Source: a virus
Taxonomy: Duplodnaviria > Caudoviricetes
IMG/VR virus record: IMGVR_UViG_3300038317_000092
Span: 1-28,441 of that record
Strand: one strand, 5' to 3'
DNA: 28,441 nucleotides
Shown here: positions 1 to 24,818 of the stretch, in pieces
Layout of the letters: each line of letters opens with the position of its first letter
Numbering within the stretch: position 1 is the first letter of the stretch
Program-made: the position numbers and the translations under genes
Notes under the pieces: generated by a model
The model's database searches: none
What the model was told of the DNA's origin: nothing
What the model saw: the letters and a program-made list of their open reading frames with translations, nothing else

Positions 1-432
1 TGCTAAATCATTAATCCATTCAATTGTTTTTTGAATAGCAATTGATGCGAGAACTGCAACGCCTACATTCATTGCAATATTTAAAGCTTTTACACTAACC
101 GTTGCAACTTTAGATGCTATGCCAACACTTTTAGTAGCAGTTGCGGCGGTGGTTTGTGCTCTTTTAAATCCTTCTACACTATCAGTACCAGCAACTATTT
201 TTGGAGCGAAGTCTTGTGCTTGTTTACTTGCTTTACCAAGTGTTTGTTCAAAGAATTCGGACTTATTTGTTGCTGAACCAACTCCATCAGCATACTCTTG
301 AAGTGCTTGTGCATCCTTTTTTAAATCTTTAGTTAAATCTAACTGAGCTTCTTTCTTAATCGACCAAATATTACTAATACCTAAACCAGAAAAATTATCT
401 TCTTTTTCAATTGTTTTAAATGGAGTTAATAT
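1..432 (-). CDS. Tape measure protein, exon 2 (continues off the left edge)
   Basis: Open frame 432->1 reads ILTPFKTIEKEDNFSGLGISNIWS...ATATKSVGIASKVATVSVKALNIAMNVGVAVLASIAIQKTIEWINDLA, Ala/Thr-rich and TMP-like. An in-frame TAA lies just upstream and there is no good RBS/start. Joins in frame to exon 1 after the predicted splicing. Missed by the ORF track. Confidence 0.85.
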   Translation of the reverse strand, partial: MLTPFKTIEKEDNFSGLGISNIWSIKKEAQLDLTKDLKKDAQALQEYADGVGSATNKSEFFEQTLGKASKQAQDFAPKIVAGTDSVEGFKRAQTTAATATKSVGIASKVATVSVKALNIAMNVGVAVLASIAIQKTIEWINDLA

Positions 433-503
433 CAATCTGTTACTTTCATTAATAAGATGAGGTAGTCTTATTAATTACTGACCATAATTATTTTATATTT
501 ATA

Positions 504-531
504 TTGATTTATTAGATATAAGTGATATACT
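504..531 (+). promoter_or_regulatory. Putative sigmaA promoter of the zinc-ribbon cargo gene
   Basis: TTGATT-16 nt-TATACT with an extended -10 TG (523-524), about 40 nt upstream of ATG 573. Confidence 0.5.
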
Positions 532-572
532 ATAAATAGATATGCATAACAATACAAAGGTGATGATATACA

Positions 573-1064
573 ATGAGTAATCGTATATTCTATTGTCCAA
601 AATGCGGCGATATTTCTATTGAATTTGACGATGATGAACATTACTGCACAAACACGTCAACTTGCAAAAAAATTAAAATGATTAATACTCATAAAACCTC
701 AAAATATTTTTTTAACAAGTATTTTGAGGGAAAAGAAAAATGCGATGAAGTTCTTTTTAAATATGATTTAGCTGAAGAAGTTAGAAAAGAATTTGTTTAT
801 GATAATCCTTTATACGATAAAGAAGCGGATATGAAAAGTCAAGCTGATTACAAAAGAATTGAAGATAAAAATCTTAAAGCTACACGTTTAGAGCAATCAA
901 GAACTAACACAGATAACACTCCACATTGTCCTACTTGTAGCTCAACAGATATTGAAAAAATATCTACATCAAGTAAAGTAGGGAAAGCAGCATTATTTGG
1001 AATATTTTCTATTGGAAGTATTACAAAGCAGTTCAAATGTAAAAATTGTGGATATAAATGGTGA
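573..1064 (+). CDS. Zinc-ribbon protein (intron cargo, antisense to the late operon)
   Basis: N-terminal CPKC...C...C. C-terminal CPTC-(hydrophobic GKAALFGIFSIG)-CKNCGYKW. AAGGTGA RBS. Confidence 0.8.
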   Translation: MSNRIFYCPKCGDISIEFDDDEHYCTNTSTCKKIKMINTHKTSKYFFNKYFEGKEKCDEVLFKYDLAEEVRKEFVYDNPLYDKEADMKSQADYKRIEDKNLKATRLEQSRTNTDNTPHCPTCSSTDIEKISTSSKVGKAALFGIFSIGSITKQFKCKNCGYKW

Positions 1065-1084
1065 TAATTTAGAATAGATATAAT

Positions 1085-1115
1085 AAAAGACTGGATTTCA
1101 ATGTCCAGTCTTTTT
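1085..1115. terminator. Bidirectional intrinsic terminator between convergent cargo genes
   Basis: AAAAGACTGGA-tttcaatg-TCCAGTCTTTT(T): stem with an A-run on one side and a T-run on the other. Confidence 0.75.
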
Positions 1116-1126
1116 AATTCAAGCAC

Positions 1127-1729
1127 CTAACATCCAAATTTGACAATCTCTACAGGACAATTATTGTCAGAAACATCATTAACATTTGCAATAACACAAC
1201 ATTGATTATCATTTGTTATCCATGCTGAACTATATCTATTGTCATTAAGTGTATCTGATACAAGTTTTAGTTTGTCCAAAACAAATTCGGAAACATAACT
1301 TGAAAATGAATATGCTATATTTTTGCGTATATTCTCAATGCTATAGCCATTAAATGCCTTGTCCATAATCGGTTTAAGAATTTGACGTTCATTAGAATTA
1401 AGTTTTACTTCAACAGAAGTATCACAATAATGTTCTTCATCTACAAATTGAATTTGATAATTATAACTTCCTTCAATATTTTTACAAACATTCAATGAAT
1501 AACTTCCTTGAATTTCATCATCATTCCATTGTTCATCTGTATGAAAATATCTTAATTGATTTTTAAGAATCTCTTTGATATGTTCAAAATGTAAATCGTC
1601 TGAAATTTCAGAAACGAATGGAATAATAATGCTTTCGTTATCAAACTCTATATTTTCAAAATTCAACAAATCTTGTTTAATTATAAAGTGGGGAAGATAA
1701 GCAAAATTATTAAAATTAATAAGTTTCAT
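1127..1729 (-). CDS. Hypothetical protein (intron cargo)
   Basis: ORF of about 200 aa. Likely start is ATG 1729 (MKLINFNN), right after the stop of the Bro gene, with an upstream GGTGG RBS. Confidence 0.7.
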   Translation of the reverse strand: MKLINFNNFAYLPHFIIKQDLLNFENIEFDNESIIIPFVSEISDDLHFEHIKEILKNQLRYFHTDEQWNDDEIQGSYSLNVCKNIEGSYNYQIQFVDEEHYCDTSVEVKLNSNERQILKPIMDKAFNGYSIENIRKNIAYSFSSYVSEFVLDKLKLVSDTLNDNRYSSAWITNDNQCCVIANVNDVSDNNCPVEIVKFGC

Positions 1730-1730
1730 G

Positions 1731-2549
1731 TTATGCCACCGTCCTTTTAGAAACAGTAGCCGATAATAATTTTTCAGTATCAAATTCGTTTTCAAGATTG
1801 TTTTTCTTAATTAGTTTGTATATGTAATTTGTTCCTTTAGGACTTACCATAGTTACCATTGTATAATGACCTTTATCGTTTTTGTTATGAAGAACTTTAA
1901 AACAACCGTTTTTCGTAAATCTACCATACGGAACATTAAAATTGCTTTGCTTTGTTAAAATTTTATTTTTTCTAAGAAAATCAAATAGTTTAGTACGACC
2001 GATTTCAATACTTTGAGCCAAGTCAATAAATTTAATGTAACCTTGTGCAGTCATTAAATCTTGATAGGCTTCTGCTTGTGGTGTCAGTCGTGAAATTTGA
2101 TTTTTGTATTCTTCGTTCTGCTTTTTTAAATCTTGAACCATTGCCAGTTTGGTACTATCAGTAAATGATGGAAAGTAATTATCAATAAATTCACTTTCTC
2201 TATCTTCTTGAACATATCCTCCAGTTTGTCGAATTTGAGGTAATACTTCCGATGTTACCCAATGCTTAAATTCTTTTGCTTTTGGTAATTTACTACCAAA
2301 AACCATTGAATAAAATCCAGATTCATTGATAATCGTAATTCCGCGATTGGGAATTTCTAAGGTAGTATTTTGCGACCTTTGAAGAATTTGTTTATCATCG
2401 TCTTCTACATGCCTTATTAAAGCATCTTTAGTGTTTGTATATCCCAGTTGATTAGCAACGTCTTTGCCTATTAACCACGCAATACCATTAATATTAATAC
2501 CACGAATTTCTCCAAAATCTTTATTAATGAATTTTTGTAATTCTGACAT
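1731..2549 (-). CDS. Bro-N domain phage antirepressor with KilAC/ANT-like C-terminus (intron cargo)
   Basis: FGEIR...WLIGKDVANQLGYTNTKDAL..HV...IINESGFYSMVFGSKLPKAKEFKHWVTSEVLPQIRQTGGY is Bro-N. IGRTKLFDFLR...PY...F...T.VSPKG..YI is ANT-like. GGAGG RBS before ATG 2549. Confidence 0.9.
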   Translation of the reverse strand: MSELQKFINKDFGEIRGININGIAWLIGKDVANQLGYTNTKDALIRHVEDDDKQILQRSQNTTLEIPNRGITIINESGFYSMVFGSKLPKAKEFKHWVTSEVLPQIRQTGGYVQEDRESEFIDNYFPSFTDSTKLAMVQDLKKQNEEYKNQISRLTPQAEAYQDLMTAQGYIKFIDLAQSIEIGRTKLFDFLRKNKILTKQSNFNVPYGRFTKNGCFKVLHNKNDKGHYTMVTMVSPKGTNYIYKLIKKNNLENEFDTEKLLSATVSKRTVA

Positions 2550-2657
2550 TTTTATTCCTCCAAATATTAAACAATCTTCGTTTAGTACTTGAAAGATAGC
2601 CAATCTCATGTTATACTGAATTTAACACAAGGCGTACTATCGTCAAGTGCTATGTAC

Positions 2658-2697
2658 AAATAAGACTATTCGCTTTGGTAGGGGGAGTAGTCTTATT
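2658..2697 (-). terminator. Hairpin / terminator-like leader between the RHH and Bro genes
   Basis: AAATAAGACTACTC-(loop containing CTACCAAAG)-GAATAGTCTTATTT inverted repeat overlapping the RHH stop codon. Confidence 0.55.
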
Positions 2698-2851
2698 TAT
2701 TTTTTTTGACTTCAATTTGTATTTCTCCATTAAGATATTTAGCAATAAGCTTTTCAAGAATATCATTTACATCTACATTTTTTTGAATTGCTTTAATCTT
2801 TAATTGAGATAACAAATCTTCATCAAGAGTTGTTCTAAACCCCTTTCTCAT
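2693..2851 (-). CDS. Small ribbon-helix-helix DNA-binding protein (intron cargo)
   Basis: 52 aa MRKGFRTTLDEDLLSQLKIKAIQKNVDVNDILEKLIAKYL shows the beta-strand plus two helices pattern. AGGAGG RBS before ATG 2851. Confidence 0.8.
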   Translation of the reverse strand: MRKGFRTTLDEDLLSQLKIKAIQKNVDVNDILEKLIAKYLNGEIQIEVKKNK

Positions 2852-2875
2852 ATCGCACCTCCTGTTCATGAATGT

Positions 2876-2904
2876 ATAGTAACATATGAACATGAGATTG
2901 TCAA
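2876..2904 (-). promoter_or_regulatory. sigmaA promoter of the RHH-Bro cassette with likely operator repeats
   Basis: TTGACA-17 nt-TACTAT with extended TG. GTTCAT/ATGAAC repeats lie in the spacer and next to the RBS. Confidence 0.7.
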
Positions 2905-2959
2905 TACTATTTGGAAAAATATTTTGAAAATGTTGGAAATAATTTAAGGACGTGACATT

Positions 2960-3316
2960 ATGATTAGACCAAGCCATATGGATGATAGCAATAACAGTTG
3001 TTTAGCTACTACCATAATAGCAATACTATTAGCTGTATGTTTTCCTTTGGGTATAATAGCAATATTTGTTTATAGTGCATGGGACAATACAAGCGAAACT
3101 ACACAACACACTATTGCTGAATGGATACAAATGATTATATTAGGATTTGCGTTAATTTCGTATCCAATTTTAGCATTTATATCGTTGTTTGCCCCAATAT
3201 ATAAACCTCACGAAATTGCAATATTTTGGATAATTACTATTGCAGAATTAATATTTTTAATACATAAATGTTATAAGAAACACAAAAACAAGAATAAACA
3301 TCTAAATAACGATTAA
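2960..3316 (+). CDS. Small membrane protein, about 3 TM segments (intron cargo, antisense to the late operon)
   Basis: Three long hydrophobic stretches and a basic C-terminal tail. AAGGA RBS. Confidence 0.7.
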   Translation: MIRPSHMDDSNNSCLATTIIAILLAVCFPLGIIAIFVYSAWDNTSETTQHTIAEWIQMIILGFALISYPILAFISLFAPIYKPHEIAIFWIITIAELIFLIHKCYKKHKNKNKHLNND

Positions 3317-3767
3317 TCTTTTTAAAATCATAACACCTCTATTATAATTAATGGCTTAAATTTAACCATAGGGGATAGGGTTTAATAATTATGGCGAGTA
3401 GTCATTTCTGCTACTTCTACGGTATTTCTCCGTAAGTTCAGACTGTCCATTAAGAGCATATATAATAATATACTCCAACCTTCATGCAGTCGTTGGACAC
3501 TATCCTATAAAAATAGGACTTGGTTGCTGACCATACATTGTAATAACACTTAGCACCGTTACGAAACGGCTTTTATCTCAGCATATGTCATCTCTTTTAT
3601 TTTTTCTGAGTTTCCTCGACATTCACGCTTACCTTTTGAGTTACGTTGTAGTTAAAAGAGTTTTAGCATTTCCCAGCATTGGAAGGTTCGCTTTTATATT
3701 TGATTTATATAAACATCCTATATCTTGAAAGTTACGCAACTAACTTGACATAAGAGGGCATATTTCT

Positions 3768-5372
3768 ACCAGCGTTTTTACCTAATAAAGATAAGGCTGC
3801 TACTGCTGCACCTGCAAGAGTAGGAATTGTACCTAAATGTTCTGTTAACCAAGATACTGCACCTAACGCACCAGAACCAGTATCAACAGCACCCTTTACA
3901 AAATCACTATTTATAAAATCTGTTGATAATTTTTGGAAATTTGCATTGAATTGTTCCGTTTTAGCATTAATAGAGTTTAACCATTTTTCTTGTTCTTTTA
4001 TGGCAGAACCGGATGAATTTCTAGAAGTATCAAGGGCTTTTTCAGCATCTTTCATATTTGTAATAATTGATGCGACAATATTTGCCTGTCTTTTCCCTGC
4101 CATTAATTCCAAAGCAGAAGCTTGATCTTTTTGAGTCATTTTATCCCAAACTTTAGACATTTCAAGCATAATATCATATGTAGATTTGAACGTATCTTTA
4201 TCAGTCATGATATTAACTTTGCCTTTTGTAAGGTTTAAAAGTTGAGTTTGTAATTTTGTTATACTTTCAGCAGCACCTTCAGATTCTTCACCCAATTCTT
4301 CGAGTTTACCCTTTGTATTTGTTAAACGCAAAGAAACGGTTTTTAAAGCATTACCCACAATTTCGGGGCTTTGAATTACATTATTACCTGCTACAAGTAA
4401 TGCTATTGAATGATCTAAGTCATTATTTGCAACTTTTAATGCAGAAGACGAAAGTTTCATAGCTTGCCCGATTCCTGCGCTGGTTATTGCAAAATTATTA
4501 CCTACCTCATTAAATTTATCAGCAATTGAAATACTGTCTTTTGCAGAAATATTAAAAGCCTTCATGGTTGATATGATATCTTCGCTTGAAGTGTTAATAT
4601 CAACATCACCGACATTTTTATAAATAGTTGCTACTTGTGCTAATTTAGAAGCATCGGGTAATTCATATCCTAATCTTGCAAAATTTGCAGTTGCAGACAC
4701 AACATCTGAAATTTTACTACCTAACTCAACGGCTTTTTGACTTGTGTTTGTTAAAAATCTAGAATACACAACATCTGTTTCATCTGTAACTTTCTTCAAA
4801 TCAGTCATAGCTGTATCAATTTCTACAACATTTTGATACATCTGTTTAATTTCTGCAAGACCACCAACAATTATTCCACCTGCACCAAAAAATGTAGCAA
4901 ATTTCTTTACATCATTTTTAAATTCTCCTAATGCTGTTCTTCCTTCGATATTTAAAGAACGAGATACACCCTTTAATGCAGCCACTTGTGAATTGACTTT
5001 TTGCAATCCACTTTTCATTTCTCCTACATTAGTTACACTTCGTAGTCTTTCAAATTCAGATGCTATATTTTTAATTTCATTAGGAAGTTTCTTTGCAACC
5101 TGACTGTTTTTTTCAAGATATTTATTAAAACTGCCATAAGCACCTGTAGCTCTATTTTTTAAAATATCAAGTTGCGCGGATAAATCTTTTGTACTTTTTG
5201 TAACTTTAGCCGTAACTTGTTGCGTATTTCCAATTGTCTTACTATCTATATTATATTTAATATTAATATTTGGCAATTGTTTTTCAATATCTTTTAAATC
5301 AGCTTTAAGATTAGCAATAGATACAGCTTTATTTAATTGTGCAGTAAGTAGTATCTGAGGCATGTCATTCAT
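3768..5372 (-). CDS. Phage tail tape measure protein, exon 1 (535 codons)
   Basis: EIDTAMTDLKKVTDET...FARLGY...DKFNEVGNNFAITS.GIG.A...VGNALKT.SLRL...AGKRQAN is a TP901-type TMP core. The exon ends ...LLGKNAG. The unspliced ORF runs 11 more codons into the intron (stop at 3732). Confidence 0.92.
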
Positions 5373-5398
5373 ATATTAACCACCCTTTCTTTTATATT

Positions 5399-5435
5399 AG
5401 ACAAGGAGAGTGGTACTAAGCCACTCTCCTTGTCT
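5399..5435. repeat. 15-bp perfect hairpin over the stop codon of the endonuclease gene
   Basis: AGACAAGGAGAGTGG-tactaag-CCACTCTCCTTGTCT. No U-tract on the coding strand. Confidence 0.7.
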
Positions 5436-6996
5436 GCAATATTTCATTTGTTTCTTTTTCATAATATATCCAGTGTAATTTTTCGCCTGTTATTGGATGC
5501 TTACCTGCTGACTTTTGTTCACCTCTACAACAAGCACTAATACACGCCCTATTTATATGCAATTTATTAAATACATCTGAAGCATTTAAAAATATTTGAT
5601 TTAATTCAAGACAATATACTTTTTTAGAACATCTTTCAATGTTTAATTTACCATGATTTATATTATTTTGTATTTTTGATTGAATCACATCATAATCACA
5701 CCAATTTAATGCAGCACCTTGTTTTAAATATCTTCTTATTGTATTTCTATTTAATTTTAACTTGATTGAAATCTCTATGATATTCTTTGTATTATCCCAT
5801 AATTCACAAGCTTCTTTTACAAACGAATTTAAAGCATTTTTATTGCATTGATTCCAATCAATTTTAGACAAATCAAATAAATCATTTAATCTACTATCTA
5901 AAACATTATTCTTAATCCACTCTAATTCAGACTTCCTACAATCAATTACTATGTAATTTTCTTCTTTTATTCCGTTTTTTAATGCTAATTGTTTTTTTAA
6001 TTTATCATTTTCTTGTTCTTCTTGTAATGTTCGTCCTCTACCTGTTTCCTCATAATGTTGCAACCCATGAGTTTCAATAATACAATTAAATTTTGATATA
6101 TAAAAATCATATCTATAATTACTACACCATTTAACAGATGTTTTAGTTAATTGTGTTTGAAATTTCCCACTTAATTGTTGCAATACTGAATACATAATCT
6201 TTTCTGGATAACTGATGCCATCTGAACATTTTGGACAACCTAAACCTTGAGTTATAAAATTAATTGGTGATATAAATTTTTCATTACCACAGTTAGGACA
6301 TTTTATCCAAACCTTTTTATTACTACCATGAGGAATTTCAAATGGACTAATTGTATTTGTATTTCCCCAATACGTTGCAATATTGTTTGTCTCATATGTA
6401 TCAATCTGATATTGACCAAAACTATTACATTGATTGCATAACATACAACCAATTTCACCATTTGTAAAACCATTGATACTTTTTAATTCGCTATGGTGTT
6501 CAGGATAATGTAAACATTTAAACCAATATCCCTTTTTATTAAAACCCATAGAACTATAAGACACATCTTTTGGACTACATTTATTCAATTCATAATCCCA
6601 ACGCAATATTATGTTATCGGCATCTTCTTTTAATAAATTATTATAACACCATTGTTGAAATGATTGACTATTCTTTAATCTCGTTAATCTTCTTTTTTCA
6701 TTACCATATAATTTATTAGCACAATTATTACAATAATAACACCCATTAGGTTTGACATATTTTTTATAATTTTGCCATTTTATATTTAATATTTCTCCAC
6801 ATTTATCACATTTAACATTAATCATAATATTACTATTACTTGATAAATCTTCAATTTTAATGATAATTTTTGTACCTCTTGAGACAGTTAATTTTCCACA
6901 TTTATTTTTTGTTCTATGAATTTTATAACCTAAATTTTCGTAATATTTTATCATATTACTACTAACACCAACTTCTACTTCTTTTGTTAATAACAT
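5416..6996 (-). CDS. Free-standing zinc-ribbon repeat, PD-(D/E)XK/Vsr-like putative homing endonuclease with NUMOD1-like HTH
   Basis: Multiple CxxC pairs. Nuclease-like YDFYI...IIETHGLQHY. C-terminal KKVYCLELNQIF...ISACCRG..KSAG...LHWIY. GGAGG RBS. Confidence 0.75.
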   Translation of the reverse strand: MLLTKEVEVGVSSNMIKYYENLGYKIHRTKNKCGKLTVSRGTKIIIKIEDLSSNSNIMINVKCDKCGEILNIKWQNYKKYVKPNGCYYCNNCANKLYGNEKRRLTRLKNSQSFQQWCYNNLLKEDADNIILRWDYELNKCSPKDVSYSSMGFNKKGYWFKCLHYPEHHSELKSINGFTNGEIGCMLCNQCNSFGQYQIDTYETNNIATYWGNTNTISPFEIPHGSNKKVWIKCPNCGNEKFISPINFITQGLGCPKCSDGISYPEKIMYSVLQQLSGKFQTQLTKTSVKWCSNYRYDFYISKFNCIIETHGLQHYEETGRGRTLQEEQENDKLKKQLALKNGIKEENYIVIDCRKSELEWIKNNVLDSRLNDLFDLSKIDWNQCNKNALNSFVKEACELWDNTKNIIEISIKLKLNRNTIRRYLKQGAALNWCDYDVIQSKIQNNINHGKLNIERCSKKVYCLELNQIFLNASDVFNKLHINRACISACCRGEQKSAGKHPITGEKLHWIYYEKETNEILQTRRVA

Positions 6997-7207: not shown

Positions 7208-8635
7208 TTATAATAAAATTTCAGTACTAGAATTCACACAAATAACTTTTGATGTTCTATTCTTTTTACTAATTTCCTCTTGTAAATCTTTACTAAATTC
7301 TACTTTACTAGAGAATTCGCCATGCACAAGAGCTACCTTTTCACAATCAATATTAGAGTAATAATCAAGTAACCCACTTCTACCCATATGTCCACTAAAT
7401 GATTTCAAATCTGTTATATTACATCTGTTTGGAATAGGTTTACCATCAATAGTAATTGTTTTCTGTTTATTACCATTCTTAATTTTCCCTGCCAATGAAC
7501 TTGTGCTTGAAAATCCCACAAAAATTATATGTGATTTGCTATCAGGTAATAAAGTCTTTGCCCATTGTCTGGATCTTCCTGCTTGCATAAAGCCACTGGC
7601 TGATAATGCACAACATGGTTCTTTACCAGTCATCCAAATTTTGCTATCTGTGTATTCATTAATAAACACAAAATTATTCCAATTCATAACTTTATTCCAT
7701 TTATCAAGTTGTTCACCTTCAAGCAATTCAGTATAAAGTTTACACATTTTTATAGCAAGGGGAGAGTCTATAAGTATTTTTAATTTGAAATTTTCATCTT
7801 CATGATATAAGTCGTAAATATGTGTCATGATATTTTGACATCTGTCTAAACTAAAAATTGCAATTAGAACTTTTCGTTTCTGTTCACAACAAACCTCATC
7901 AATAATACTTTTGATTTTTTCAAGGTCTTTAATTCTGTCTTTACTATTTGTTTGTCTAACTTTATCAGAATAAGTCGATTCACCGATTACCAGATTTGCT
8001 TTTTCAACTGGTTCAAATTTATTTACATAATATTTTTCACAAGAGATATTCCCTAAATCTGATGTATATAAAATCTTTGAGGTATGATTACCATTCTTAA
8101 TCCAAAATTCAATCTGTGAACTTAAAATGATATGCCCTGATGGAATAAATCTAAAAGTAATATTGTCATCAAGTTCAAATTTTTCATTAAAATCATATTC
8201 TTCAAAATACTGTAATGTATCCATAGCATCTGATTCAGTATAAATTGGAGGAACTGTCATCTTATATTTTCTCTGTAATGTTTCTACATCCTTACTCATA
8301 ATATAAGCGCAATCAGAAGACATAAGAGAAAATAACTTAGATGAACCTATAGGAGCGATAATTTTACCTATAAATCCTTCAGAAACAAGACGGGGAAGAA
8401 GTAACATATGATCCGCATGACAATGACCAAGGAATACATATTCAATTTCTTTAGGTTTAAAATCAAAGCGACGATTATTAATTTTATAATCATTTAGCAC
8501 TGAATTTGACTGAAACAAGCCAGCTTCTATGAGAAATTTTCTTTTGTTAAATTCAACTAAAACCATAGAACCTGTAACTGATTCAGCAGAGCCACCTACA
8601 AAGGATACTCTTATTTTATTTTTTGTTTTTGACAT
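7208..8635 (-). CDS. Metallo-beta-lactamase fold, beta-CASP family nuclease
   Basis: VTGS, HCHADH (HxHxDH), GHI, SDLG, ESTY, DSPLA, AGR, SFSGH and VHGE motifs in the expected order. Confidence 0.9.
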   Translation of the reverse strand: MSKTKNKIRVSFVGGSAESVTGSMVLVEFNKRKFLIEAGLFQSNSVLNDYKINNRRFDFKPKEIEYVFLGHCHADHMLLLPRLVSEGFIGKIIAPIGSSKLFSLMSSDCAYIMSKDVETLQRKYKMTVPPIYTESDAMDTLQYFEEYDFNEKFELDDNITFRFIPSGHIILSSQIEFWIKNGNHTSKILYTSDLGNISCEKYYVNKFEPVEKANLVIGESTYSDKVRQTNSKDRIKDLEKIKSIIDEVCCEQKRKVLIAIFSLDRCQNIMTHIYDLYHEDENFKLKILIDSPLAIKMCKLYTELLEGEQLDKWNKVMNWNNFVFINEYTDSKIWMTGKEPCCALSASGFMQAGRSRQWAKTLLPDSKSHIIFVGFSSTSSLAGKIKNGNKQKTITIDGKPIPNRCNITDLKSFSGHMGRSGLLDYYSNIDCEKVALVHGEFSSKVEFSKDLQEEISKKNRTSKVICVNSSTEILL

Positions 8636-10886: not shown

Positions 10887-10989
10887 TCCTTTTATTTATT
10901 TTTATAAGCGTAAAAAATAGGACATATATTATTCACAATATAGCGGATAATACATGTCCTATATTCGTTTAATTATCAATCCACTATAA

Positions 10990-11023
10990 AAATAGAAAGG
11001 CAAGAGTAATCCTGCCTTTCTAC
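10990..11023 (-). terminator. Intrinsic terminator after the tail-tube genes
   Basis: TAGAAAGGCA-ggattactct-TGCCTTTCTA followed by TTTT on the minus strand. Confidence 0.75.
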
Positions 11024-11044
11024 AAAAAATCATACTAATCCAGT

Positions 11045-11335
11045 TTATTTAATTTTTATTTCAAAATCAGATTCTCCAACAGTACCTTTATATTTAACCG
11101 TAATAGTATCTTTGGTCATATCCACATTAGTATCGACAATCATTTGAATCTTTACATCATCAAAGTTAAAAACTACCATATTATTTGCTTTATTATAATA
11201 TGTAATATTAACTTCTTTTTCTTTATATTTTTTCTTAATAACTTCTGGCTTTTTACTTGGAGTGTAATTAACATTGTCTACAGACTCATTTCCCAAATCC
11301 TCTGTATTATTGTTAAAATCATCTATAGATTTCAT
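11045..11335 (-). CDS. Hypothetical phage protein
   Basis: 96-aa ORF directly after the tail tube gene, AAGGAAG RBS. Confidence 0.7.
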   Translation of the reverse strand: MKSIDDFNNNTEDLGNESVDNVNYTPSKKPEVIKKKYKEKEVNITYYNKANNMVVFNFDDVKIQMIVDTNVDMTKDTITVKYKGTVGESDFEIKIK

Positions 11336-11349
11336 TCAAATTACTTCCT

Positions 11350-12096
11350 TTATTCTTCACTTGTTTCCTCAATTACATCCATAACATTACCATCTGCATC
11401 ACGAAGGCAATCAAATGTTAATTTAAGAGCCGCAGGATCACCAGTAGACGAGAAAGACATATCTAACGTTCTTTGCACAGTAGCTTTATAAGCTGTAATC
11501 TTCATAGGAACAAGAAGTCCTTCTTCATTTTTGTCAACTGTTTCCATTGTGATTCTATAATCTTTAGGGATCTTTTTGCCATTAAATGAAACGGATTTAA
11601 CACCAGTAGTTTTCTGAAGCAGATAGCATACTAAATATGTAGTATCTACAGCAATATCAGCAGGAGCGGTTGCAGTAAAAACTGTTGAAGTTGTAATTGC
11701 TGCCGTACCTTCAATAGGTGTACCACCAAAATCATCCTTTGCATATACAAATATTGTTCCTGCAATGGCAGCTTCTTCAGCAACCGTTAAAGTCCCAGCT
11801 TCAGTACAAGCTACTTCTTTTCTAACAGGAACGATTGCCTTTGTGGAAATTGTACCATCGGAAAGCATAGAATAAATCTTGAAAGGATGACACTGGAATT
11901 CAAGAGTCATTGTACCCTCTAGCGGATTGTTAAATGCAATTGCTTTCTCGCCTTTAATGTTTGCATAAGTATTGTCACTCTTAAAACCTGCTGTAGTAGT
12001 ATTACAAAAATCAGCAAACATCCAAGGTTTATTTGTAGAATACTCTCGAATATCCAAGTCACAACACTGTCTATTAGCCATATTTAAATCTGCCAT
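11350..12096 (-). CDS. Putative major tail tube protein
   Basis: ANR..CDLDIR...F.DFCNTT...MSFSSTGDPA.L..TFDCL pattern. Thr/Ala-rich, highly-expressed codon usage, GAGG RBS, position in the tail module. Confidence 0.75.
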   Translation of the reverse strand: MADLNMANRQCCDLDIREYSTNKPWMFADFCNTTTAGFKSDNTYANIKGEKAIAFNNPLEGTMTLEFQCHPFKIYSMLSDGTISTKAIVPVRKEVACTEAGTLTVAEEAAIAGTIFVYAKDDFGGTPIEGTAAITTSTVFTATAPADIAVDTTYLVCYLLQKTTGVKSVSFNGKKIPKDYRITMETVDKNEEGLLVPMKITAYKATVQRTLDMSFSSTGDPAALKLTFDCLRDADGNVMDVIEETSEE

Positions 12097-12140
12097 AATA
12101 ATTTCCTCCTTAAATTTTAATAAAATAAAAGCCTATAAAC

Positions 12141-12923
12141 TTAATCGTCCATAAGCTGAAACCATCTTGTAATATCAAATTTATTATCTTTATCTCCCCA
12201 AACAGAAGTTGACATAGATTGAATATTATAAATTGTATTGTTTTGTAGTCGTTTGAATTGGTCATATACTTGATATACTGTCATATCCCATATATTTATC
12301 ATATTTAAACTATTATGATAAGCACACAAAGCCGATATAACATTAGGCAATTCAACTTTTTTATCATATTTATTTTGTTTGTTTTGTTTTTCTTGTCCTT
12401 TTTTTAGTTTTTTAAGAATCTCTAAAGCACGATTATTTTTAACTTTTTTGAAATCTTCGTTTGCATAATTCTTAAAAATATTATTTCTTTGAAGGATAAT
12501 ATCACACATATCATAAAAATTATTGTTATCTATTATTCCTACAGGTTTATCTTCGTTTTTAACAGCCTCTTCCGATTCATACAAGACAAACTGATTAGTA
12601 ATTGTATTAAAAACAACTGATTCTTCAAAAAAGAAATTGAACGATTCCAAAAATAAATATAAAATGAATTTATTATTAATTATTAAATCATACAAATATA
12701 TCTTGGATTTAGAATCGTCATCCAATGCCTTAAACCATTCTACTTTATCTTTTTCAAAATTATTATAATAATCTTCAGGTGTGAACAAAAGTATATTAAG
12801 ATATTGATTATATTGAGCATATCTAATTTTTGATATTTCTCTTAATGTAGGAGATTTAATATGTCCAATATCTTTTATATGTATAGGTTCAGGACTAAGT
12901 AAGTCAAAATATTCAAGTTTCAA
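12141..12923 (-). CDS. Conserved-looking phage tail-module protein
   Basis: 260 aa with IG.IKSPTLREI and INIWDMTVYQVYDQFKRLQ. TTG start coupled to the upstream stop. Confidence 0.7.
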   Translation of the reverse strand: MKLEYFDLLSPEPIHIKDIGHIKSPTLREISKIRYAQYNQYLNILLFTPEDYYNNFEKDKVEWFKALDDDSKSKIYLYDLIINNKFILYLFLESFNFFFEESVVFNTITNQFVLYESEEAVKNEDKPVGIIDNNNFYDMCDIILQRNNIFKNYANEDFKKVKNNRALEILKKLKKGQEKQNKQNKYDKKVELPNVISALCAYHNSLNMINIWDMTVYQVYDQFKRLQNNTIYNIQSMSTSVWGDKDNKFDITRWFQLMDD

Positions 12924-13436
12924 TTATTTTACTCTCCTATCAAAATTAGGAATTTCATATACTAACTGTTTAGCAGTATAATTAGTAGAACCTATTGATA
13001 CGGGAGCAATAGGTGTTCTTGGTGAAAGTTGCAATTTACCTATTCCTAAATTATCCATTCTTCTTATAACTAAATCAGTATATCTTATTAAATTATCTCG
13101 TCTATTACCTGCCACTCCTTGAAAAATAGTTGGTTCTAATTTCATATTTGTCTTGTTTGAAATTACAGTTACTATGATATTTAACATCTTTGTTGTATCA
13201 TTTTTTCCATTAGAAACAACAGTGTCAATCGTTATGTAAGATAATGAATCGGTTTGAGTATCAGGAAAAAAATTATAATCAAAAATTTGTGTCCCTAATG
13301 TTTTTGGTTCATCATTTATCATATCAATATTTGGATTGTCTAAAAGTAATCCTACAATTGTTTGGTCTTGGCTCAATGCAAGCGCAATTTTATCAGGATA
13401 GTCTACAATCTCATCTAAATTTGTTAAGATATCCAT
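12924..13436 (-). CDS. Putative tail terminator/neck protein
   Basis: 170 aa, GNRRD.L...GIGKLQL. Function inferred from synteny. Confidence 0.55.
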   Translation of the reverse strand: MDILTNLDEIVDYPDKIALALSQDQTIVGLLLDNPNIDMINDEPKTLGTQIFDYNFFPDTQTDSLSYITIDTVVSNGKNDTTKMLNIIVTVISNKTNMKLEPTIFQGVAGNRRDNLIRYTDLVIRRMDNLGIGKLQLSPRTPIAPVSIGSTNYTAKQLVYEIPNFDRRVK

Positions 13437-14745
13437 TACAATTTACCACCTTACTTAATATAATTTCTTGTATTTTATTATCAATTAGTTGTTTGTAACT
13501 CTCATCTTTTTCAGTCCAATAAGGAATAGCTAAATAAAAATAACCATTACGAAAGGCAATATACCTTTTATAACGGTCATAAAGCTGTCTTTTATGTAAT
13601 TGTTGTTCTGGTGTTAAATTATCATCTTTCCAAATACTACTATATGAATTAGTATTATAATGTTGAATTCCCATAACCTCGATAACTAATTTTAAATCAA
13701 TTACTTCATTATCAAATGGCATCATACCTTGACTACCTATGTATTTAGGATTTTGAGGAATAAGTGTACATTCATATTCATGATTAAGTTTATATCCTAA
13801 TTCTTCTGATAAATATAATCTCACTTTTTCTTGAAGAAAAGATTCATTCCGTTCTCTGGTACAATTTGGACATCTAAAATTGCGATCATTCGATTCTTTG
13901 ATACTTCTTAAATAATCTTTATGTTTACCTTCAGAACATTTCCAATATATTTTACAATGAGACTTGGGAGCATATTCATATGGCGACTTTTTATTTCGAT
14001 CAGACCATATTTCAAATACTTGTGGATACAATGTACCCAATGAATCTAATTTATGTATCTTACCAGAATTTAAGCTACAATATGGACATCTATATCCGAA
14101 ACTAAACATAGAACAAGTTGTTTTATAATCTTCATGATAGCAAACGCTTTGACATTTAATATATATTGTTTTATTATTTTTAACAGATAATTTCCAAGGA
14201 TTTAATTGATTTTTATCACTCCAATATTTTTTAAGAAAATCCTTGTCTGTATTATCAATATGATATTGAGCAAATGAATCTTTAGGATGCACTTTTAAAC
14301 CTCTACAATATGGACATCTTGAGCCATTATAAAAACTACTACAACTTACTTTATAACTTCCATGATAATCATGTTCTTGACATTTTATCCAAATATATTT
14401 ATCAGATTGTATTTCATATTCCCATGGTAATCCAATATTTTTTTCATAATCCCAATACAAGTTAAAAGCATTATTTCCATATATATCAATAAGATATTGT
14501 CCAATTGAACTACATTCTTTGCATTTTACATGAGGATATGCTTTACTATTAGATATGTTATTTAGTTTATGTAACATACTATTATGTAATCCTCTTGGGC
14601 ATTTAAAATAATATTTTTTATATACACTAAATCCAACATCTTTAGGACTGCATTGATTTAATTCATAATCCCATCTATCAAGTAAATCTTGACGATTGTT
14701 TTCAACGCACCAATCATAAAATGTTTTTGTAATTATAGCACTCAT
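13411..14745 (-). CDS. Free-standing zinc-ribbon repeat, PD-(D/E)XK/Vsr-like putative homing endonuclease
   Basis: Four W..KN...P.......K...KC...H.Y.........RCPYC-type repeats, then SFLQEKV..YL...FDNEV..LKLVIEVMGIQHY...D.YK...A..NGY.YL.IPYW. Confidence 0.75.
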   Translation of the reverse strand: MSAIITKTFYDWCVENNRQDLLDRWDYELNQCSPKDVGFSVYKKYYFKCPRGLHNSMLHKLNNISNSKAYPHVKCKECSSIGQYLIDIYGNNAFNLYWDYEKNIGLPWEYEIQSDKYIWIKCQEHDYHGSYKVSCSSFYNGSRCPYCRGLKVHPKDSFAQYHIDNTDKDFLKKYWSDKNQLNPWKLSVKNNKTIYIKCQSVCYHEDYKTTCSMFSFGYRCPYCSLNSGKIHKLDSLGTLYPQVFEIWSDRNKKSPYEYAPKSHCKIYWKCSEGKHKDYLRSIKESNDRNFRCPNCTRERNESFLQEKVRLYLSEELGYKLNHEYECTLIPQNPKYIGSQGMMPFDNEVIDLKLVIEVMGIQHYNTNSYSSIWKDDNLTPEQQLHKRQLYDRYKRYIAFRNGYFYLAIPYWTEKDESYKQLIDNKIQEIILSKVVNCNGYLNKFR

Positions 14746-14750
14746 GTATA

Positions 14751-15827
14751 CTACACCACCTTAACTTGTACAGAATTATGATATAAACCATCTTGACCAC
14801 TCAAGTTAAGAATAAAACTTAAACCAATAAGTGAATTATCTGAATCAACATTCAAATAACATCTCAATGGATAATTAGCATCATATGTCAAGTGTATTTT
14901 TAACTGTTGTGTTGTTGTTAATTTACTTACATCTATTGACCATACAGGAGTTATAGTTGTAATTTCTATCCCTGAAGTATTATAAAAATGACACATGAAT
15001 GGTTTTTTACCAGCACCAACTTTACATGTTGCAATATTAGTATCATTATTATATTCAGTTGATGGTATCAATGTATTTGTTATTTTACAAACATAATCAG
15101 TAGATGGAGTAGGTACAACTGGAGGAGTCGATGGTGTAATATAATCAGCAATTTTTAATGATACATTATCCGTATTTGTCACTTCACATTCATCACAAGT
15201 CAATTGTAATAATCCATGCTCGCCATTCATATGAGTAATTCTATCTACTTTTGTAATTTTATATACTTTTGGTTTGTCGGTTAACTGGTCAATAAAAATA
15301 CGTTTGCCTTCAATAAGATATTTTGTATTTTCATTATATTGAATTAAAATAGCACGTTGAGTATCGGAAAGAGTTATAATTTTACCTTCATCTTCACCTG
15401 TACTGCTTGCCTTTGTAGTATCAATAACTATACAAGGTTCTTGGATTATGGCTGAAGATATTGTCTGAAAGGGGAGAGTGTAATTACATTGCCTTATTTG
15501 AGCAGATTTATAAGCATCATCTACATTTTTTAATTGCGAAAATACTAACCATAATGAATTTTCATATGTAACATAACTGCCATATTTTAATTGAGAATCC
15601 ATTGAGACATGAATTTTTCTATCAGTTTTATCTTCATTTAATGGATTACTATGTTGCTGAACTAATATTTGTTCTGTATATGTTTTATCTATAAGAATAG
15701 ATTTTCCTTCCGCACTATAATAACGTCTAAAATCAAAATTATCTTTTACACTTTGAATAGTTTCTTCTTTAGTATAAAACATAGAATTAAAAGATGTTGC
15801 ATCAGTCCAACTTGTTCTTGTATTCAT
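14751..15827 (-). CDS. Putative head-closure/neck protein with C-terminal Ig-like extension
   Basis: G.YV......WLV...IRQCNYTL...YKITKVD...D.....IADY, then a Pro/Thr linker and a beta-rich domain. Synteny. Confidence 0.55.
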   Translation of the reverse strand: MNTRTSWTDATSFNSMFYTKEETIQSVKDNFDFRRYYSAEGKSILIDKTYTEQILVQQHSNPLNEDKTDRKIHVSMDSQLKYGSYVTYENSLWLVFSQLKNVDDAYKSAQIRQCNYTLPFQTISSAIIQEPCIVIDTTKASSTGEDEGKIITLSDTQRAILIQYNENTKYLIEGKRIFIDQLTDKPKVYKITKVDRITHMNGEHGLLQLTCDECEVTNTDNVSLKIADYITPSTPPVVPTPSTDYVCKITNTLIPSTEYNNDTNIATCKVGAGKKPFMCHFYNTSGIEITTITPVWSIDVSKLTTTQQLKIHLTYDANYPLRCYLNVDSDNSLIGLSFILNLSGQDGLYHNSVQVKVV

Positions 15828-15839
15828 ACAACATCACCT

Positions 15840-16253
15840 CTAATTCTCATAAGTATAAAATTCTTGTCTAAATTTATATATTTCGTCAGATAATGTAGTT
15901 AGTCTTTCTTTTGATTTTTCTGCCAAATCTGGAATATCAGGTAATTTATTAAACGCTTGTGTTCCAACATATTGTTTAATGTTATTATATTTTTCATCAT
16001 AACGTCTATATAATTCTCTCGCCATACATAATGCAAGTAACTCAATAGAATCTAATCCAAGCGTATCATTAAATTGTCCATCATAAGTTGTCTGATTTGT
16101 TAATGTATAAGTTAAACTTTCAGGTACAGTTTTACAGCAATATCCTATTGATGCTTTAAAAAATTGATAAACCAATTCTTCTTTGCCTGTAAAATCTGTA
16201 TCTGGAGTTTTTACAAAAAAAGCATCATAAACTTCTTGCAATTGTGTACCCAA
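15840..16253 (-). CDS. Putative head-tail adaptor protein
   Basis: MGTQLQEVYDAFF...FNDTL....IELLALCM. Lies downstream of the capsid gene. Confidence 0.55.
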   Translation of the reverse strand: MGTQLQEVYDAFFVKTPDTDFTGKEELVYQFFKASIGYCCKTVPESLTYTLTNQTTYDGQFNDTLGLDSIELLALCMARELYRRYDEKYNNIKQYVGTQAFNKLPDIPDLAEKSKERLTTLSDEIYKFRQEFYTYEN

Positions 16254-16265
16254 AACTCCACCACC

Positions 16266-16733
16266 TTATTCTTTAAATTTAATACCTGTGTACTCTTCCA
16301 ACGTCTGAATCTTTGAAAATTCATCAAGTTTAATTTTTCTAGCAACATTCATAATTTTAATTTTTTCCTGTTCTGTTACAATATTATCTTCAAGATTTTT
16401 CTTAAATGAAACAGGTGTTTTTAATTCAAGAATATATTTACATTTATCATCGTCAATAATTAACTGTTTACGTTTATCTTCTTTGTTATCAAATCCAAAT
16501 TCTTCACGCAATTCTTCATTTTCAATATATATAGATGCATGAGAACCTAGTCCATCTGTACCAATAATAAATTTATTTCCATCATCTTTCTGTACTTCAA
16601 GCTCAGAATTCACTATAAAACTTGAACCATTTGCTTTAATCCATTCATCACCTGTATAAGTTTTACGACACCAAGAAACAGGGTAATCACAAAGATTTAC
16701 AACTTTACTTTTATCATTCATGTTTACTGACAT
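16266..16733 (-). CDS. Hypothetical phage protein downstream of the major capsid gene
   Basis: 155-aa ORF with GGTGG RBS. Confidence 0.7.
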   Translation of the reverse strand: MSVNMNDKSKVVNLCDYPVSWCRKTYTGDEWIKANGSSFIVNSELEVQKDDGNKFIIGTDGLGSHASIYIENEELREEFGFDNKEDKRKQLIIDDDKCKYILELKTPVSFKKNLEDNIVTEQEKIKIMNVARKIKLDEFSKIQTLEEYTGIKFKE

Positions 16734-16767
16734 AAATAAAAATTAACCACCTTTTATTTAAATTATA

Positions 16768-16793
16768 TAGGGGAGAAATCAAATTCTCCCCTA
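16768..16793 (-). terminator. Hairpin after the major capsid gene
   Basis: TAGGGGAGAA-atcaaa-TTCTCCCCTA. Weak U-tract, so possibly an attenuator or stabiliser. Confidence 0.6.
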
Positions 16794-16806
16794 ATTTTCT
16801 TACATA

Positions 16807-17934
16807 TTATTCGTCTAAATCAGAGTCATAAATATATCCAATGAAGGGGATATATTCTTTTACAAGATAATTACCATATTCGCAATCAAAACGGGTAACT
16901 TCTGAACGAGAATTAATATCTGTGGCAGTCATAGAAGTAAGACCACCACGCATAACAATCTGAAGAGGAGTCATCTGACCTTGAGGAATGAACCACAAAT
17001 CAGAAGTAGGCAGATAAGGTTTATAGAAATCTCCAGCAGTATTTAATGCTGTCATATTATAAGCGTTAGGAATTTCAACAACAGGAGTACCCTTCCAGTT
17101 CTTGAGAAGACCAGTATTCATAATTTCTTCCATAACTGCTTCAGAGAATCTAACTTCATTAGCATTAGTAGTACTATTGACATTAAATCCTGCAAGTCCA
17201 CTAAGTTTATCAACTGCATCAAAGTCGCCCATAATGGTAACATTACCAAATCTACGAGCTTTTTTACGAACAGAATCAACACTTGTAGCGGTAATACCAG
17301 CCTGATAGTTTTTCAGAGTTGTTGCATTCTTAACACCTGTACGAAGAGCATTAATATTAGAATAAACCATCTGATTAGTAATGTCTGTAACAACCTGTTC
17401 ACCAGCCTGAGCAAAACCATCAATTGCTCCAGAAGCAAGTTCACGATAATCAATTACAAGACCACCTGTAGCAGTCTGAGTATCAGCAATACCAGTTCTC
17501 TTTTTTACAGTAGGGAATACGAAAGAACCAGAAGTTGCCTGAATACGAGAAAGTTCAGAAGCCTGAATCTGATAGTATTCATAACGAAGTTCCTCATTAT
17601 AACCAACTGTCTTTGCATTACCAATAACATTATTAAGCTGAAGTCTCTGGAGTAGAGGCTGCTGAAGTGTAACAGTTGTAATACTATTAATTTCAGCCTT
17701 GGCTTTCATATCACCATTGACAGCCGCAGAAGCCGCATCTTTTACATAACCAAGAACTTCATCGACTTTCTTTCCATACTTGGATGTATCCTTACCCCAA
17801 ACCATTTTAGAAAAGATTTCAACATCTTCTGTTGCCTTACCATTATGTACTGTATTATTAACAACACTATTAAGTTCAACCTGTGCATTGTCTTCTTTAA
17901 GCTTAGTAAAATCATTTACATTAAAAAAACTCAT
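16807..17934 (-). CDS. Major capsid protein
   Basis: 375 aa, GGAGG RBS, highly-expressed codon bias. G.LKNWKGTPVVEIPNAY and TRFDCEYG are HK97-fold-like C-terminal features. Follows scaffold and decoration genes. Confidence 0.85.
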   Translation of the reverse strand: MSFFNVNDFTKLKEDNAQVELNSVVNNTVHNGKATEDVEIFSKMVWGKDTSKYGKKVDEVLGYVKDAASAAVNGDMKAKAEINSITTVTLQQPLLQRLQLNNVIGNAKTVGYNEELRYEYYQIQASELSRIQATSGSFVFPTVKKRTGIADTQTATGGLVIDYRELASGAIDGFAQAGEQVVTDITNQMVYSNINALRTGVKNATTLKNYQAGITATSVDSVRKKARRFGNVTIMGDFDAVDKLSGLAGFNVNSTTNANEVRFSEAVMEEIMNTGLLKNWKGTPVVEIPNAYNMTALNTAGDFYKPYLPTSDLWFIPQGQMTPLQIVMRGGLTSMTATDINSRSEVTRFDCEYGNYLVKEYIPFIGYIYDSDLDE

Positions 17935-17970
17935 TTTATATAACCTCCATTATTTTATATTTATTAAAAA

Positions 17971-18495
17971 TTAAGCAGCCATTACTTTAAGGACATAACC
18001 ACCTGCAACAGTTCCACCATTCTTATCAATAGTAAAAGAACCAAAAGTAGTTTTTGCTACAACAACATAATAAACTGCATAACCCGTTACATCAGCAACT
18101 TTCTTTAGTCCCATTGTATTAGTGGTATCAGCCGCACAACAACCAACAAGAGTATCGCCAACAGAGACAGTAGAAAACGCATCAGTCACTAAATCAGCGG
18201 AAACATCCATTTTCTCACCAACAAAATCTTTGATCCTGTATGCACGAATTTTACCATTTGCAGGAATCTTATAATCATCAGTATTAATGATTTCAGGCTT
18301 ATCAATAATATTAAGCATTACATAAGCATTGCCAGTTTTAACTTCTGTATCTGTCGCAAAAGGAACAGCAGTATCAACTCCAGCAGTAGTAACAATCTTA
18401 AACTGATTACCGTTATACGTATCAACAGTAGCCACTACTTCAGGATGATTGGATTTATTCAGAAAATTAGAATCATGAAATTTAAAAAGACTCAT
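17971..18495 (-). CDS. Putative capsid decoration/cement protein
   Basis: 174 aa, Thr/Val/Ala-rich beta protein between scaffold and MCP. Confidence 0.6.
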   Translation of the reverse strand: MSLFKFHDSNFLNKSNHPEVVATVDTYNGNQFKIVTTAGVDTAVPFATDTEVKTGNAYVMLNIIDKPEIINTDDYKIPANGKIRAYRIKDFVGEKMDVSADLVTDAFSTVSVGDTLVGCCAADTTNTMGLKKVADVTGYAVYYVVVAKTTFGSFTIDKNGGTVAGGYVLKVMAA

Positions 18496-23528: not shown

Positions 23529-24818
23529 ACCCCCGTTTCTACAGTCTAATACTATATAATCTGAATCAAAGTCTTCAAATAGTTGTCTGATTCTAATAGC
23601 CTGTTTTGTCGTATCTCCTATTTGATTAGATTCTATATAAGGAATTTTACGACGATATCCTTGCTTTATTTCTATAGCATTACCTTCTGCCTCATATGTA
23701 ATTGATTCTGGAACACCTCTAATGCAACTATATACAGAGTTATCATTTTGCTTTCCAGCAACAAAAGCAATATCACAAGATATAACTCTTACTTCTCCAT
23801 CTTGTTTTGGAATAGAATATTTATTTTTTCTACCGCTTTTAATATCTATAACATTACGAGGATAGAATACCTGTCTTAATTTTTGTCTATTAATTAGCAT
23901 GGCATAAGTAAAATATGATGAAATAGAATCTCTTACTTTTAAGTTTAAAAACTCAATCTGCCATGTTGCAGGATCTTGTTTCTTTTTTTCCTTTATCAAC
24001 TGGTCAAGGGTTTTTAAATCATGTTTCAATGTAATACTTTCATCAAATGCAAGCATCATTCCACCTTTGTGCTTTTTCATTGCATCAAGGGCTTGCTTTT
24101 CTATATCCCACATCCAGTTTCCGTCATCGTACCAACTTGAACTTATATATATATCAACTGGTTCTTCTTTTAGAATTGAAATATTTTTATAATAATCCTT
24201 CAACATATATTTAGGTTTTCTTGGAGTTTGGAAAGGAGAAATTACAGAATCTTCAACTTTTTTCTTTATTTGCCTACATTCTTCTCTTGCAATAGCATTT
24301 GCTCTTAAACCTCTTGCATTCTCATTTGCAACAAATACAGTAATTTTTGAACCGTTACGAAATTTTACATATATATCATTATTCTTAATACTATATGACT
24401 CTATTTCTTTTCTTAAAATAGGCGACCAATCACATAATTCATCTATTATCTTTTCAGATACAATTAATTTCGCTTGCTTTTCAGTAGAAGATCCAATTCT
24501 AAATTTTGTTCCTTTGTATAATAAGCATCTAGCAACAGCATAGACTGCAACAATAAACGATTTTGCATCATTTCTACTCGCAATTATACATATTAAATTT
24601 GATATACCCATCATATATATGGCTAATGCTTGATATTCATATAAAGATATTTTTAAATAATCAATTACAAATCTATGCATATTTCTTCTAAAAAACGTTC
24701 CCCATGCCAATACATGAAGAACATTATTTTGATTACTTAAATAATTGGTAGAAGGATAATTTTTATATAAACTAAGTTGATTTTCGTCAGCGTATGTTTT
24801 TAAATCATTCTTCTTCAT
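23529..24818 (-). CDS. terL: Terminase large subunit, exon 1 (430 codons; spliced product about 604 aa)
   Basis: LYEYQ, IASRNDAKS (Walker A-like), NARGLR, REE (Walker B-like), YISSS (motif III), ISCDIA and YIVLD (RNase H-like acidic residues). Likely ATG 24818 after GGTGA. Confidence 0.9.

Follow-up and report, generated by a model that had tools for sequence, protein, structure and literature searches.

The tape measure gene of an SPbeta-like phage contains a group I intron whose last loop may serve as a swappable accessory island

The window analyzed here is an entire 28.4-kb virus record (IMGVR_UViG_3300038317_000092; 28,441 nt), which carries phage head and tail genes on the minus strand. 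Its tape measure protein (TMP) gene is interrupted by a 3.3-kb element with the structure of a group I intron and five genes in its last loop. At the level of sequence we establish an intact ribozyme core, an in-frame exon junction, cargo devoid of endonuclease families, and exchange of that cargo beneath a fixed core. We consider it very likely that the intron is functional at the predicted splice sites. Our preferred interpretation, with a probability of roughly two in three, is that a group I intron in an SPbeta-like TMP gene uses its last loop as a swappable accessory island, and would be spliced in cis from a long late RNA after read-through by a YonO-type RNA polymerase.

The interrupted gene and its group I core

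The window TMP is 27-38% identical to the TMPs of SPbeta, Sundance and Basilisk-type phages, and ∼50% identical to those of many uncultured gut and fermenter phages. At the DNA level, the best match to the window is a fermentation metagenome, which may be the sample it came from. An earlier sequence-only reading of the same DNA had proposed a group I core, an interrupted TMP frame and their positions, and all were found at the places given. It had also proposed that the frame stops at 3768. The interruption is indeed there, but the unspliced frame enters the intron for 11 codons and stops at 3734-3732. In the closely related locus L291, the exon 2 frame spans 1336 codons, with tail genes downstream of it.

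The internal guide sequence (IGS, 3764-3757) pairs with the exon GGU (3770-3768) to form P1, as had been predicted, and the U-G pair typical of group I introns is present at the 5′ splice site. The core contains a P3-P7 pseudoknot with P4-P6, and a G-C guanosine site adjoins the bulge. Its helices are P3 (3688-3682/3483-3477), P4 (3678-3673/3530-3525) and P7 (3493-3487/3445-3440, with a bulged C and the guanosine-binding G-C pair); P6 and P8 are also present, P9 starts at 3437, and P9.1 covers 3415-3397. An Rfam scan of the entire window gave no intron match. A narrowed scan matched RF00028 over 3739-3417 with the same helices (26.9 bits, E 5.6e-5), the 120-nt P5 extension being scored as an insertion.

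The core is similar to intergenic stretches in 198 phage records, including the TMP intron of phage TR-TP1. A MAFFT alignment of the cores misplaced the P7 region of the window, hence no pair counts were taken from it and the helices were read by motif anchors. Across seven loci P3 has five different sequences, with 5-7 of its 8 pairs kept, and the first P7 pair is A-U, U-A or C-G depending on the lineage. Extra helices P7.1 and P7.2 between P7 and P3 are the criterion for subgroup IA2. Neither was found in the window or in six relatives, where the 3′ strand of P3 starts 2-3 nt after P7, so the element does not classify as IA2 by that measure.

The 3′ splice site and the closing stem

Read from position 432, directly after the predicted ω-G, exon 2 is in phase 0 with exon 1, so that ligation restores the frame, and the guide sequence can form P10 at the junction. 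The proposed join of 3768 to 432 also withstood comparison with an intron-less homologue: both exons are matched by the uninterrupted TMP of L149, exon 1 at E 3e-22 and exon 2 at E 9e-14. The two alignments are offset by three residues, and the one to exon 2 begins directly after the splice site. Exon 2 of L291 matches 24 of 56 distinct uninterrupted TMPs, and all nine hand-curated lineages join their exons in phase 0. Among four exon-2 homologues examined, none extends to both exons in one longer protein; those checked start at exon 2. Independent translation of exon 2 from TTG 435, raised beforehand as an outcome that would contradict splicing, finds little in its favor. Gene callers do place the start at this TTG, which overlaps ω-G; no Shine-Dalgarno or other ribosome-binding site accompanies it, and in seven of the nine lineages the first 80 codons of exon 2 hold no Shine-Dalgarno-led start.

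Comparison of relatives points to the same 3′ end. In contig X1-1 the 63-nt 3′ module (433-495) carries one conservative change, against 27 changes in exon 2. The P10 pairing is found at the single best G-preceded site in L093 (11 bp, n = 1352), L078 (11 bp, n = 231) and L199 (8 bp, n = 765); in L061 and L003, a change in the guide is accompanied by one in the exon, with the pairing kept. The inverted repeat proposed to bring the core and the 3′ end together (3394-3384 with 492-482) is present, and its 11 bp exceed all 47 control loop windows, but only narrowly, the best control reaching 10 bp. Closing stems of 9-12 bp occur in six of nine lineages, each ending 39-49 nt before ω-G, and their arms belong to three unrelated sequences (that of the window, that of L093, and that shared by L187, L199, L188 and L061). 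In L006 a 27-bp stem was seen by eye. The expectation that closing stems covary among relatives is thus borne out for these six lineages and fails for L078, L003 and L035, which show no stem above background.

The absence of a stem in these three lineages is one of several points that weigh against the intron as drawn. The RF00028 score is below the gathering cut-off (50 bits), which is a curation threshold and not a biochemical feature. The P10 pairing claimed for the window does form, but it is just 5 bp long and non-unique, being equalled at 11 of 531 G-preceded sites; L035 has no P10 at the 3′ site chosen for it. An arm pair taken across lineages reached 10 bp, so chance pairing in such A/T-rich DNA is real, and the co-folding gain of the window (-10.7 kcal/mol) tops all 105 loop windows by only 0.5. 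Moreover, 3′ sites were chosen by eye with P10 and the reading frame in view, which makes those tallies partly circular. Since the P10 and stem of the window are modest on their own, the comparative evidence weighs more than the window itself. A loose contig end behind position 413, present in two runs, was considered as an intron-less allele; it is absent from viral contigs and from the matches listed on the narrowed stretch, and was not used.

Cargo genes and their turnover

The five open reading frames (ORFs) that had been noted in the loop were confirmed as a hydrophobic ORF, a ribbon-helix-helix (RHH) protein, a Bro-N + KilAC antirepressor, an orphan and a zinc-ribbon protein (Table 1); two are antisense to the TMP gene. 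As had been claimed, no endonuclease is recognizable among them (0/5 match an endonuclease family), and no IS200/IS605 transposase or TnpB was found at the 3′ end of the intron in the window or in the scanned cargo. By its structure and by these searches, the element is a group I intron that is neither a homing intron nor an IStron. A TcdA/TcdB-pore match of the 200-aa orphan was rejected as chance (E 0.0068, 15 bits against a cut-off of 27), and PADLOC gave no match for the five window ORFs and weak matches for four of 14 other cargo proteins.

To place the window in its family, 185 loci were fetched by protein (80 viral, 25 genome and 80 metagenome loci; the sets are redundant). The TMP frame stops near the site of the window in 17, 5 and 20 of them, respectively (42/185), and reads through it as one ORF in 63, 16 and 59 (138/185). 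Nine interrupted loci were not assigned to any lineage; visual inspection, which covered all but L127, showed a group I-like core in most of them. When loci added by core motif are included there are 83 cases: 63 with both ends resolved, by lineage-specific motifs written by eye, 11 in which no 3′ end was found, and 9 unassigned. The 63 resolved inserts range from 881 to 6464 nt with 1-10 ORFs. In every one the last ORF is antisense, and in every one the two TMP halves are linked and in order. The zinc-ribbon protein that takes this last place in the window falls in Atlas clusters of unknown function; its gene has homologues in 14 of the 42 interrupted loci and in none of the 138 uninterrupted ones.

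The non-duplicate loci hold 216 cargo ORFs in 56 clusters. None of the 51 cluster representatives scanned (of 52 outside the window) matched HNH, GIY-YIG, LAGLIDADG or PHROG endonuclease families, although an unrecognised nuclease among the orphans is possible. The named matches were zinc ribbons, aspartyl proteases, Panacea/SocA antitoxin and DUFs.

Together with the spread of insert sizes, close relatives bear out the suggested variable-cargo hotspot. Contig 1 of run X2 (3564 nt) has 8 differences in 943 nt on the core side (2895-3837) and matches 917-1745 on the orphan side, and between them ∼1450 other letters replace the ∼1150 of the window that hold the RHH-Bro cassette. The alignment tells us that this cassette is swapped in a near-identical relative, and that the exchange is recent. 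In the L061 lineage, one core is associated with cargo of 2.6-5.4 kb. From such comparisons, cargo turns over beneath a fixed core. To call the intron a cargo vehicle, as the sequence-only reading did, is an overstatement: we saw no sign that the intron moves its cargo.

Some further observations concern this family. In L249 (4608-5490) a Panacea/SocA antitoxin gene and its neighbor lie in the cargo loop and could stabilise the island. In run X7, a low-depth contig joins 1070 to 3293; in it, 33 letters separate the zinc-ribbon gene's end from the core side, and it may represent an allele with short cargo. Near the same TMP position, L024, L035, L099, L102, L107 and L121 have group I-like cores of a quite different kind, which suggests either repeated invasion of the site or core exchange under a common cargo end. 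The TMP gene of L082 (Anaerovorax sp. IOR16, 10890-18270) has two apparent introns. One, ∼69 codons upstream of the site of the window, contains an endonuclease-like ORF; the other, at that site, contains a Mutator-family transposase, Bro-KilAC and an antisense zinc-ribbon gene. The second core was recognized by eye only, with no Rfam match, and its 3′ site is not fixed.

Table 1. Features of the interrupted TMP gene in the window
Feature	Position	Strand	Basis or remark
Exon 1 of the TMP gene, 535 codons	3768..5372	-	Pfam PhageMin_Tail 3.6e-20; phrog_4211 5e-87
P1 helix, 5′ splice site after U3768, IGS	3757..3770	-	Sequence; guide also forms 5-bp P10 with exon 2
Group I ribozyme core, P2-P9.1	3397..3767	-	RF00028 match 3739-3417; P3/P4/P7 table; similarity to phage intergenic stretches
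5′ arm of closing stem (predicted to close cargo loop)	3384..3394	-	Inverted repeat with 482-492
Cargo 1, 118-aa hydrophobic, likely membrane protein	2960..3316	+ (antisense to TMP)	No family above cut-off
Sigma-70/A-type promoter-like site (TTGACA, 17 nt, TG, TACTAT)	2876..2904	-	Consensus match only; fronts RHH-Bro-orphan cassette
Cargo 2, 52-aa Arc-like (RHH) repressor	2693..2851	-	phrog_3180 4.1e-11
Cargo 3, 272-aa Bro-N + KilAC antirepressor	1731..2549	-	PF02498 2.3e-24; PF03374 2.3e-16
Cargo 4, 200-aa orphan protein	1127..1729	-	No family; no Atlas match; 2 close homologues only
Hairpin flanked on either side by T runs, likely bidirectional intrinsic terminator	1085..1114		Between convergent cargo genes; kept in L291
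Cargo 5, 163-aa zinc-ribbon protein, recurrent last loop gene	573..1064	+ (antisense)	Weak zinc-ribbon and phrog_3845 matches
Promoter-like site (extended -10) of zinc-ribbon gene	504..531	+	Similar -10 element by eye before last gene in other lineages
3′ arm of closing stem	482..492	-	Unchanged in L291; no variant among those listed in four runs
10-bp hairpin, 3′ intron module	448..475	-	Fold; sole variant seen, at 449, keeps pair as G-U
Predicted ω-G, 3′ splice site	433	-	Phase 0 with exon 1; P10; homologue collinearity
Exon 2 of the TMP gene	1..432	-	Runs off contig; 1336 codons in 92%-identical L291

Elsewhere on the minus strand of the window, the tail cluster contains two free-standing, endonuclease-like DUF4379 zinc-finger genes (5416-6996 and 13411-14745). 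The first lies directly upstream of the TMP gene, with a strong hairpin at 5393-5442. As a mobiliser of the intron this nuclease-like gene is unsupported, with homologues in 0/42 interrupted and 3/138 uninterrupted loci. A gene for a beta-CASP ribonuclease of the metallo-beta-lactamase fold (7208-8635), an RNA-processing enzyme, is also within the tail cluster, close to the intron-split genes. The large terminase gene (terL) is apparently split by a second, conventional intron (22308-23530): its frame breaks after ...LDCRNGG and resumes near 22308. In between, a group I-like core, recognized by eye and with no Rfam match, precedes an HNH ORF (22367-23239). Finally, an RRXRR + HNH protein (27321-28385) is IscB-like by its Pfam domains.

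Transcription through the loop and comparison with known introns

The sequence-only reading had the five genes right but overlooked promoter-like and terminator-like sites in the loop that face the TMP direction, which leaves the production of a single precursor RNA to be explained. Promoter-like sites are found at 2904 (sense) and 504 (antisense); sigma-70/A-type consensus matches were not enriched over shuffles. The hairpin at 1085-1114 faces the TMP direction too. The sense-facing hairpins of the window are modest (-11.6 and -10.1 kcal/mol), and the two shortest lineages have no sense-facing terminator. Where terminator-like hairpins are present, the host polymerase would probably stop inside the intron.

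A phage enzyme may account for the passage. The late genes of SPbeta are transcribed as one operon by YonO, a single-chain polymerase with little pausing, and 37 of them are silent in its absence; according to the same paper, YonO likely lacks the majority of the domains conserved in the host enzyme, and the flap governing hairpin termination is named as one of those domains (PMC5467207). Of 12 intron-bearing records, 11 have a YonO-like gene; the exception is the incomplete L092 genome. In L082, the closest TMP relative (64%), such a gene precedes the locus by ∼16 kb, and the two appear to share a contig; a query with a single YonO protein missed this gene, which the family search found.

We favor, as the first paragraph states, cis-splicing of a long late RNA. 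Cargo genes would be expressed from their own host-type promoters, e.g. in the lysogen. Late in infection, a processive phage polymerase would transcribe the entire 3.3 kb, passing the stop signals of the cargo; the short stem and P10 would bring the 3′ end, 2.9 kb distant, to the core; and guanosine-initiated splicing would yield a TMP mRNA of ∼1,870 codons. Insertions in the loop may be tolerated because the loop is spliced out, and cargo could be exchanged without homing if recombination used the conserved flanks, with the core or exon 1 on one side and the last gene on the other. A safe harbor for such genes might be the selected benefit to the phage.

Some observations speak against this scheme. 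Sense-facing terminator-like hairpins occur in six of eight loops, 11 in total, against 2 in equal lengths of exon controls. Read-through of terminators by YonO would go beyond the content of PMC5467207. Three of the 11 YonO-like matches are under the family cut-off, and one is on another contig. All five controls without the intron of the window (4/4 intron-less phages, and TR-TP1) also have YonO-like genes, so that such a polymerase would be a permissive condition rather than a specific link, and it does not predict the loops. The contig of the window has no polymerase gene, and is too short to show one.

The same hairpins also fit an unlikely alternative, splicing in trans: one RNA, with exon 1 and the core, would stop at a terminator of the cargo, another, started inside the loop, would supply exon 2 together with the 3′ module, and pairing in the closing stem and P10 would unite them. 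The complete catalytic core is on the 5′ side, the stem would work equally well between two molecules, and the promoter-like site at 2904 is directed toward exon 2. However, the stretch from the 1085-1114 hairpin to the 3′ arm shows no promoter-like site that stands out in the direction of exon 2, and L291 does not share a candidate near 556. The linkage and order of the halves in all 63 resolved loci, and the two shortest lineages devoid of a sense-facing terminator, also speak against it. In addition, 9-12 A/U-rich pairs would be weak for intermolecular capture. No phage example of trans-splicing of two RNAs was found in the literature searched.

That host RNA polymerase makes the precursor of cis-splicing, through phage antitermination or leaky terminators and with no part for a YonO-type enzyme, is less probable still. 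The modest hairpins of the window and the lack of a polymerase gene on its contig fit such a scheme, but the YonO-like gene upstream of the locus in L082 and the silence of the SPbeta late genes without yonO (PMC5467207) do not. Finally, it is very improbable that the intron is dead, with TMP made as two proteins or the prophage defective and the cargo an ordinary moron island between two genes: the TTG chosen by gene callers and the sub-threshold Rfam score are outweighed by an intact guanosine site, covarying helices, phase 0 in nine lineages, the single conservative change in 433-495 against 27 in exon 2 of contig X1-1, the missing Shine-Dalgarno site, and the 138/185 homologous loci that read through as one ORF. 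A wider proposal goes beyond our preferred cis-splicing interpretation: a widespread class of phage group I introns would have traded homing for cargo, the ribozyme making an accessory-gene island of the middle of an essential virion gene, with either trans-splicing of two RNAs or a polymerase-gated switch, in which the host enzyme would make cargo RNA only, stopping at terminators, and the YonO-type enzyme alone a spliceable precursor. We consider this conceivable but tentative, with the odds somewhat against it.

Group I introns are known from TMP genes. Those of Bacillus cereus-group prophages (TMP-IVS1, IVS2 and IVS3) resemble the element of the window in that they lie in frame, have an early stop in P1/P2, and have P1 and P10 fitted to the site; they are of IA1/IA2 type, and different introns occupy one site (PMC2504315). 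They carry one homing endonuclease gene or its remains, whereas loops of the type described here contain as many as ten unrelated genes, encoded on either strand and equipped with promoter- and terminator-like sites of their own. The TMP genes of Vibrio phage ICP1, with splicing documented by RNA-seq and reverse transcription PCR (RT-PCR) and an intron content that varies between isolates (PMC10448857), and of Thomasclavelia phage TR-TP1, whose intron scores 54.6 bits with RF00028, are likewise split, but their passengers are one or two HNH endonucleases. Bastillevirinae introns also have ORFs in loops and partial Rfam matches, which are usual for phage introns, and their splicing was shown by RT-PCR. 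In contrast to the 0.9-6.5 kb and the absence of a nuclease family seen here, they average 802 ± 342 nt and mostly hold one coding sequence or none, all nucleases; the same study describes phage group I introns as carrying one endonuclease or nothing and calls their function largely elusive (PMC11878797). IStrons, which combine a group I intron with an IS605-family transposon (PMC10690162), also render an insertion harmless to the host gene and carry non-homing genes, but they are transposons with transposase/TnpB, whereas the core described here stays at one site while its cargo changes. Phage group I introns with multi-gene, non-nuclease cargo did not come up in the literature searched, with most subscription papers and supplements outside its scope. 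The mitochondrial ND5 group I intron of hexacorals holds whole genes in its loop. Those are fixed organelle housekeeping genes, unlike the variable accessory cassettes of phages.

The picture that emerges is of a fixed ribozyme sheltering fast-changing regulators, membrane proteins, and toxin-antitoxin or defense-like genes inside the TMP gene, and roughly a fifth of the related loci sampled carry such an interruption (42/185, redundant). If it is spliced as predicted, a group I core can reach across as much as 6 kb to its 3′ end, and in many SPbeta-like phages of gut and fermenter bacteria the TMP gene would be mis-annotated and an accessory island hidden. It would then offer a testable case of an intron retained for what the phage can carry.

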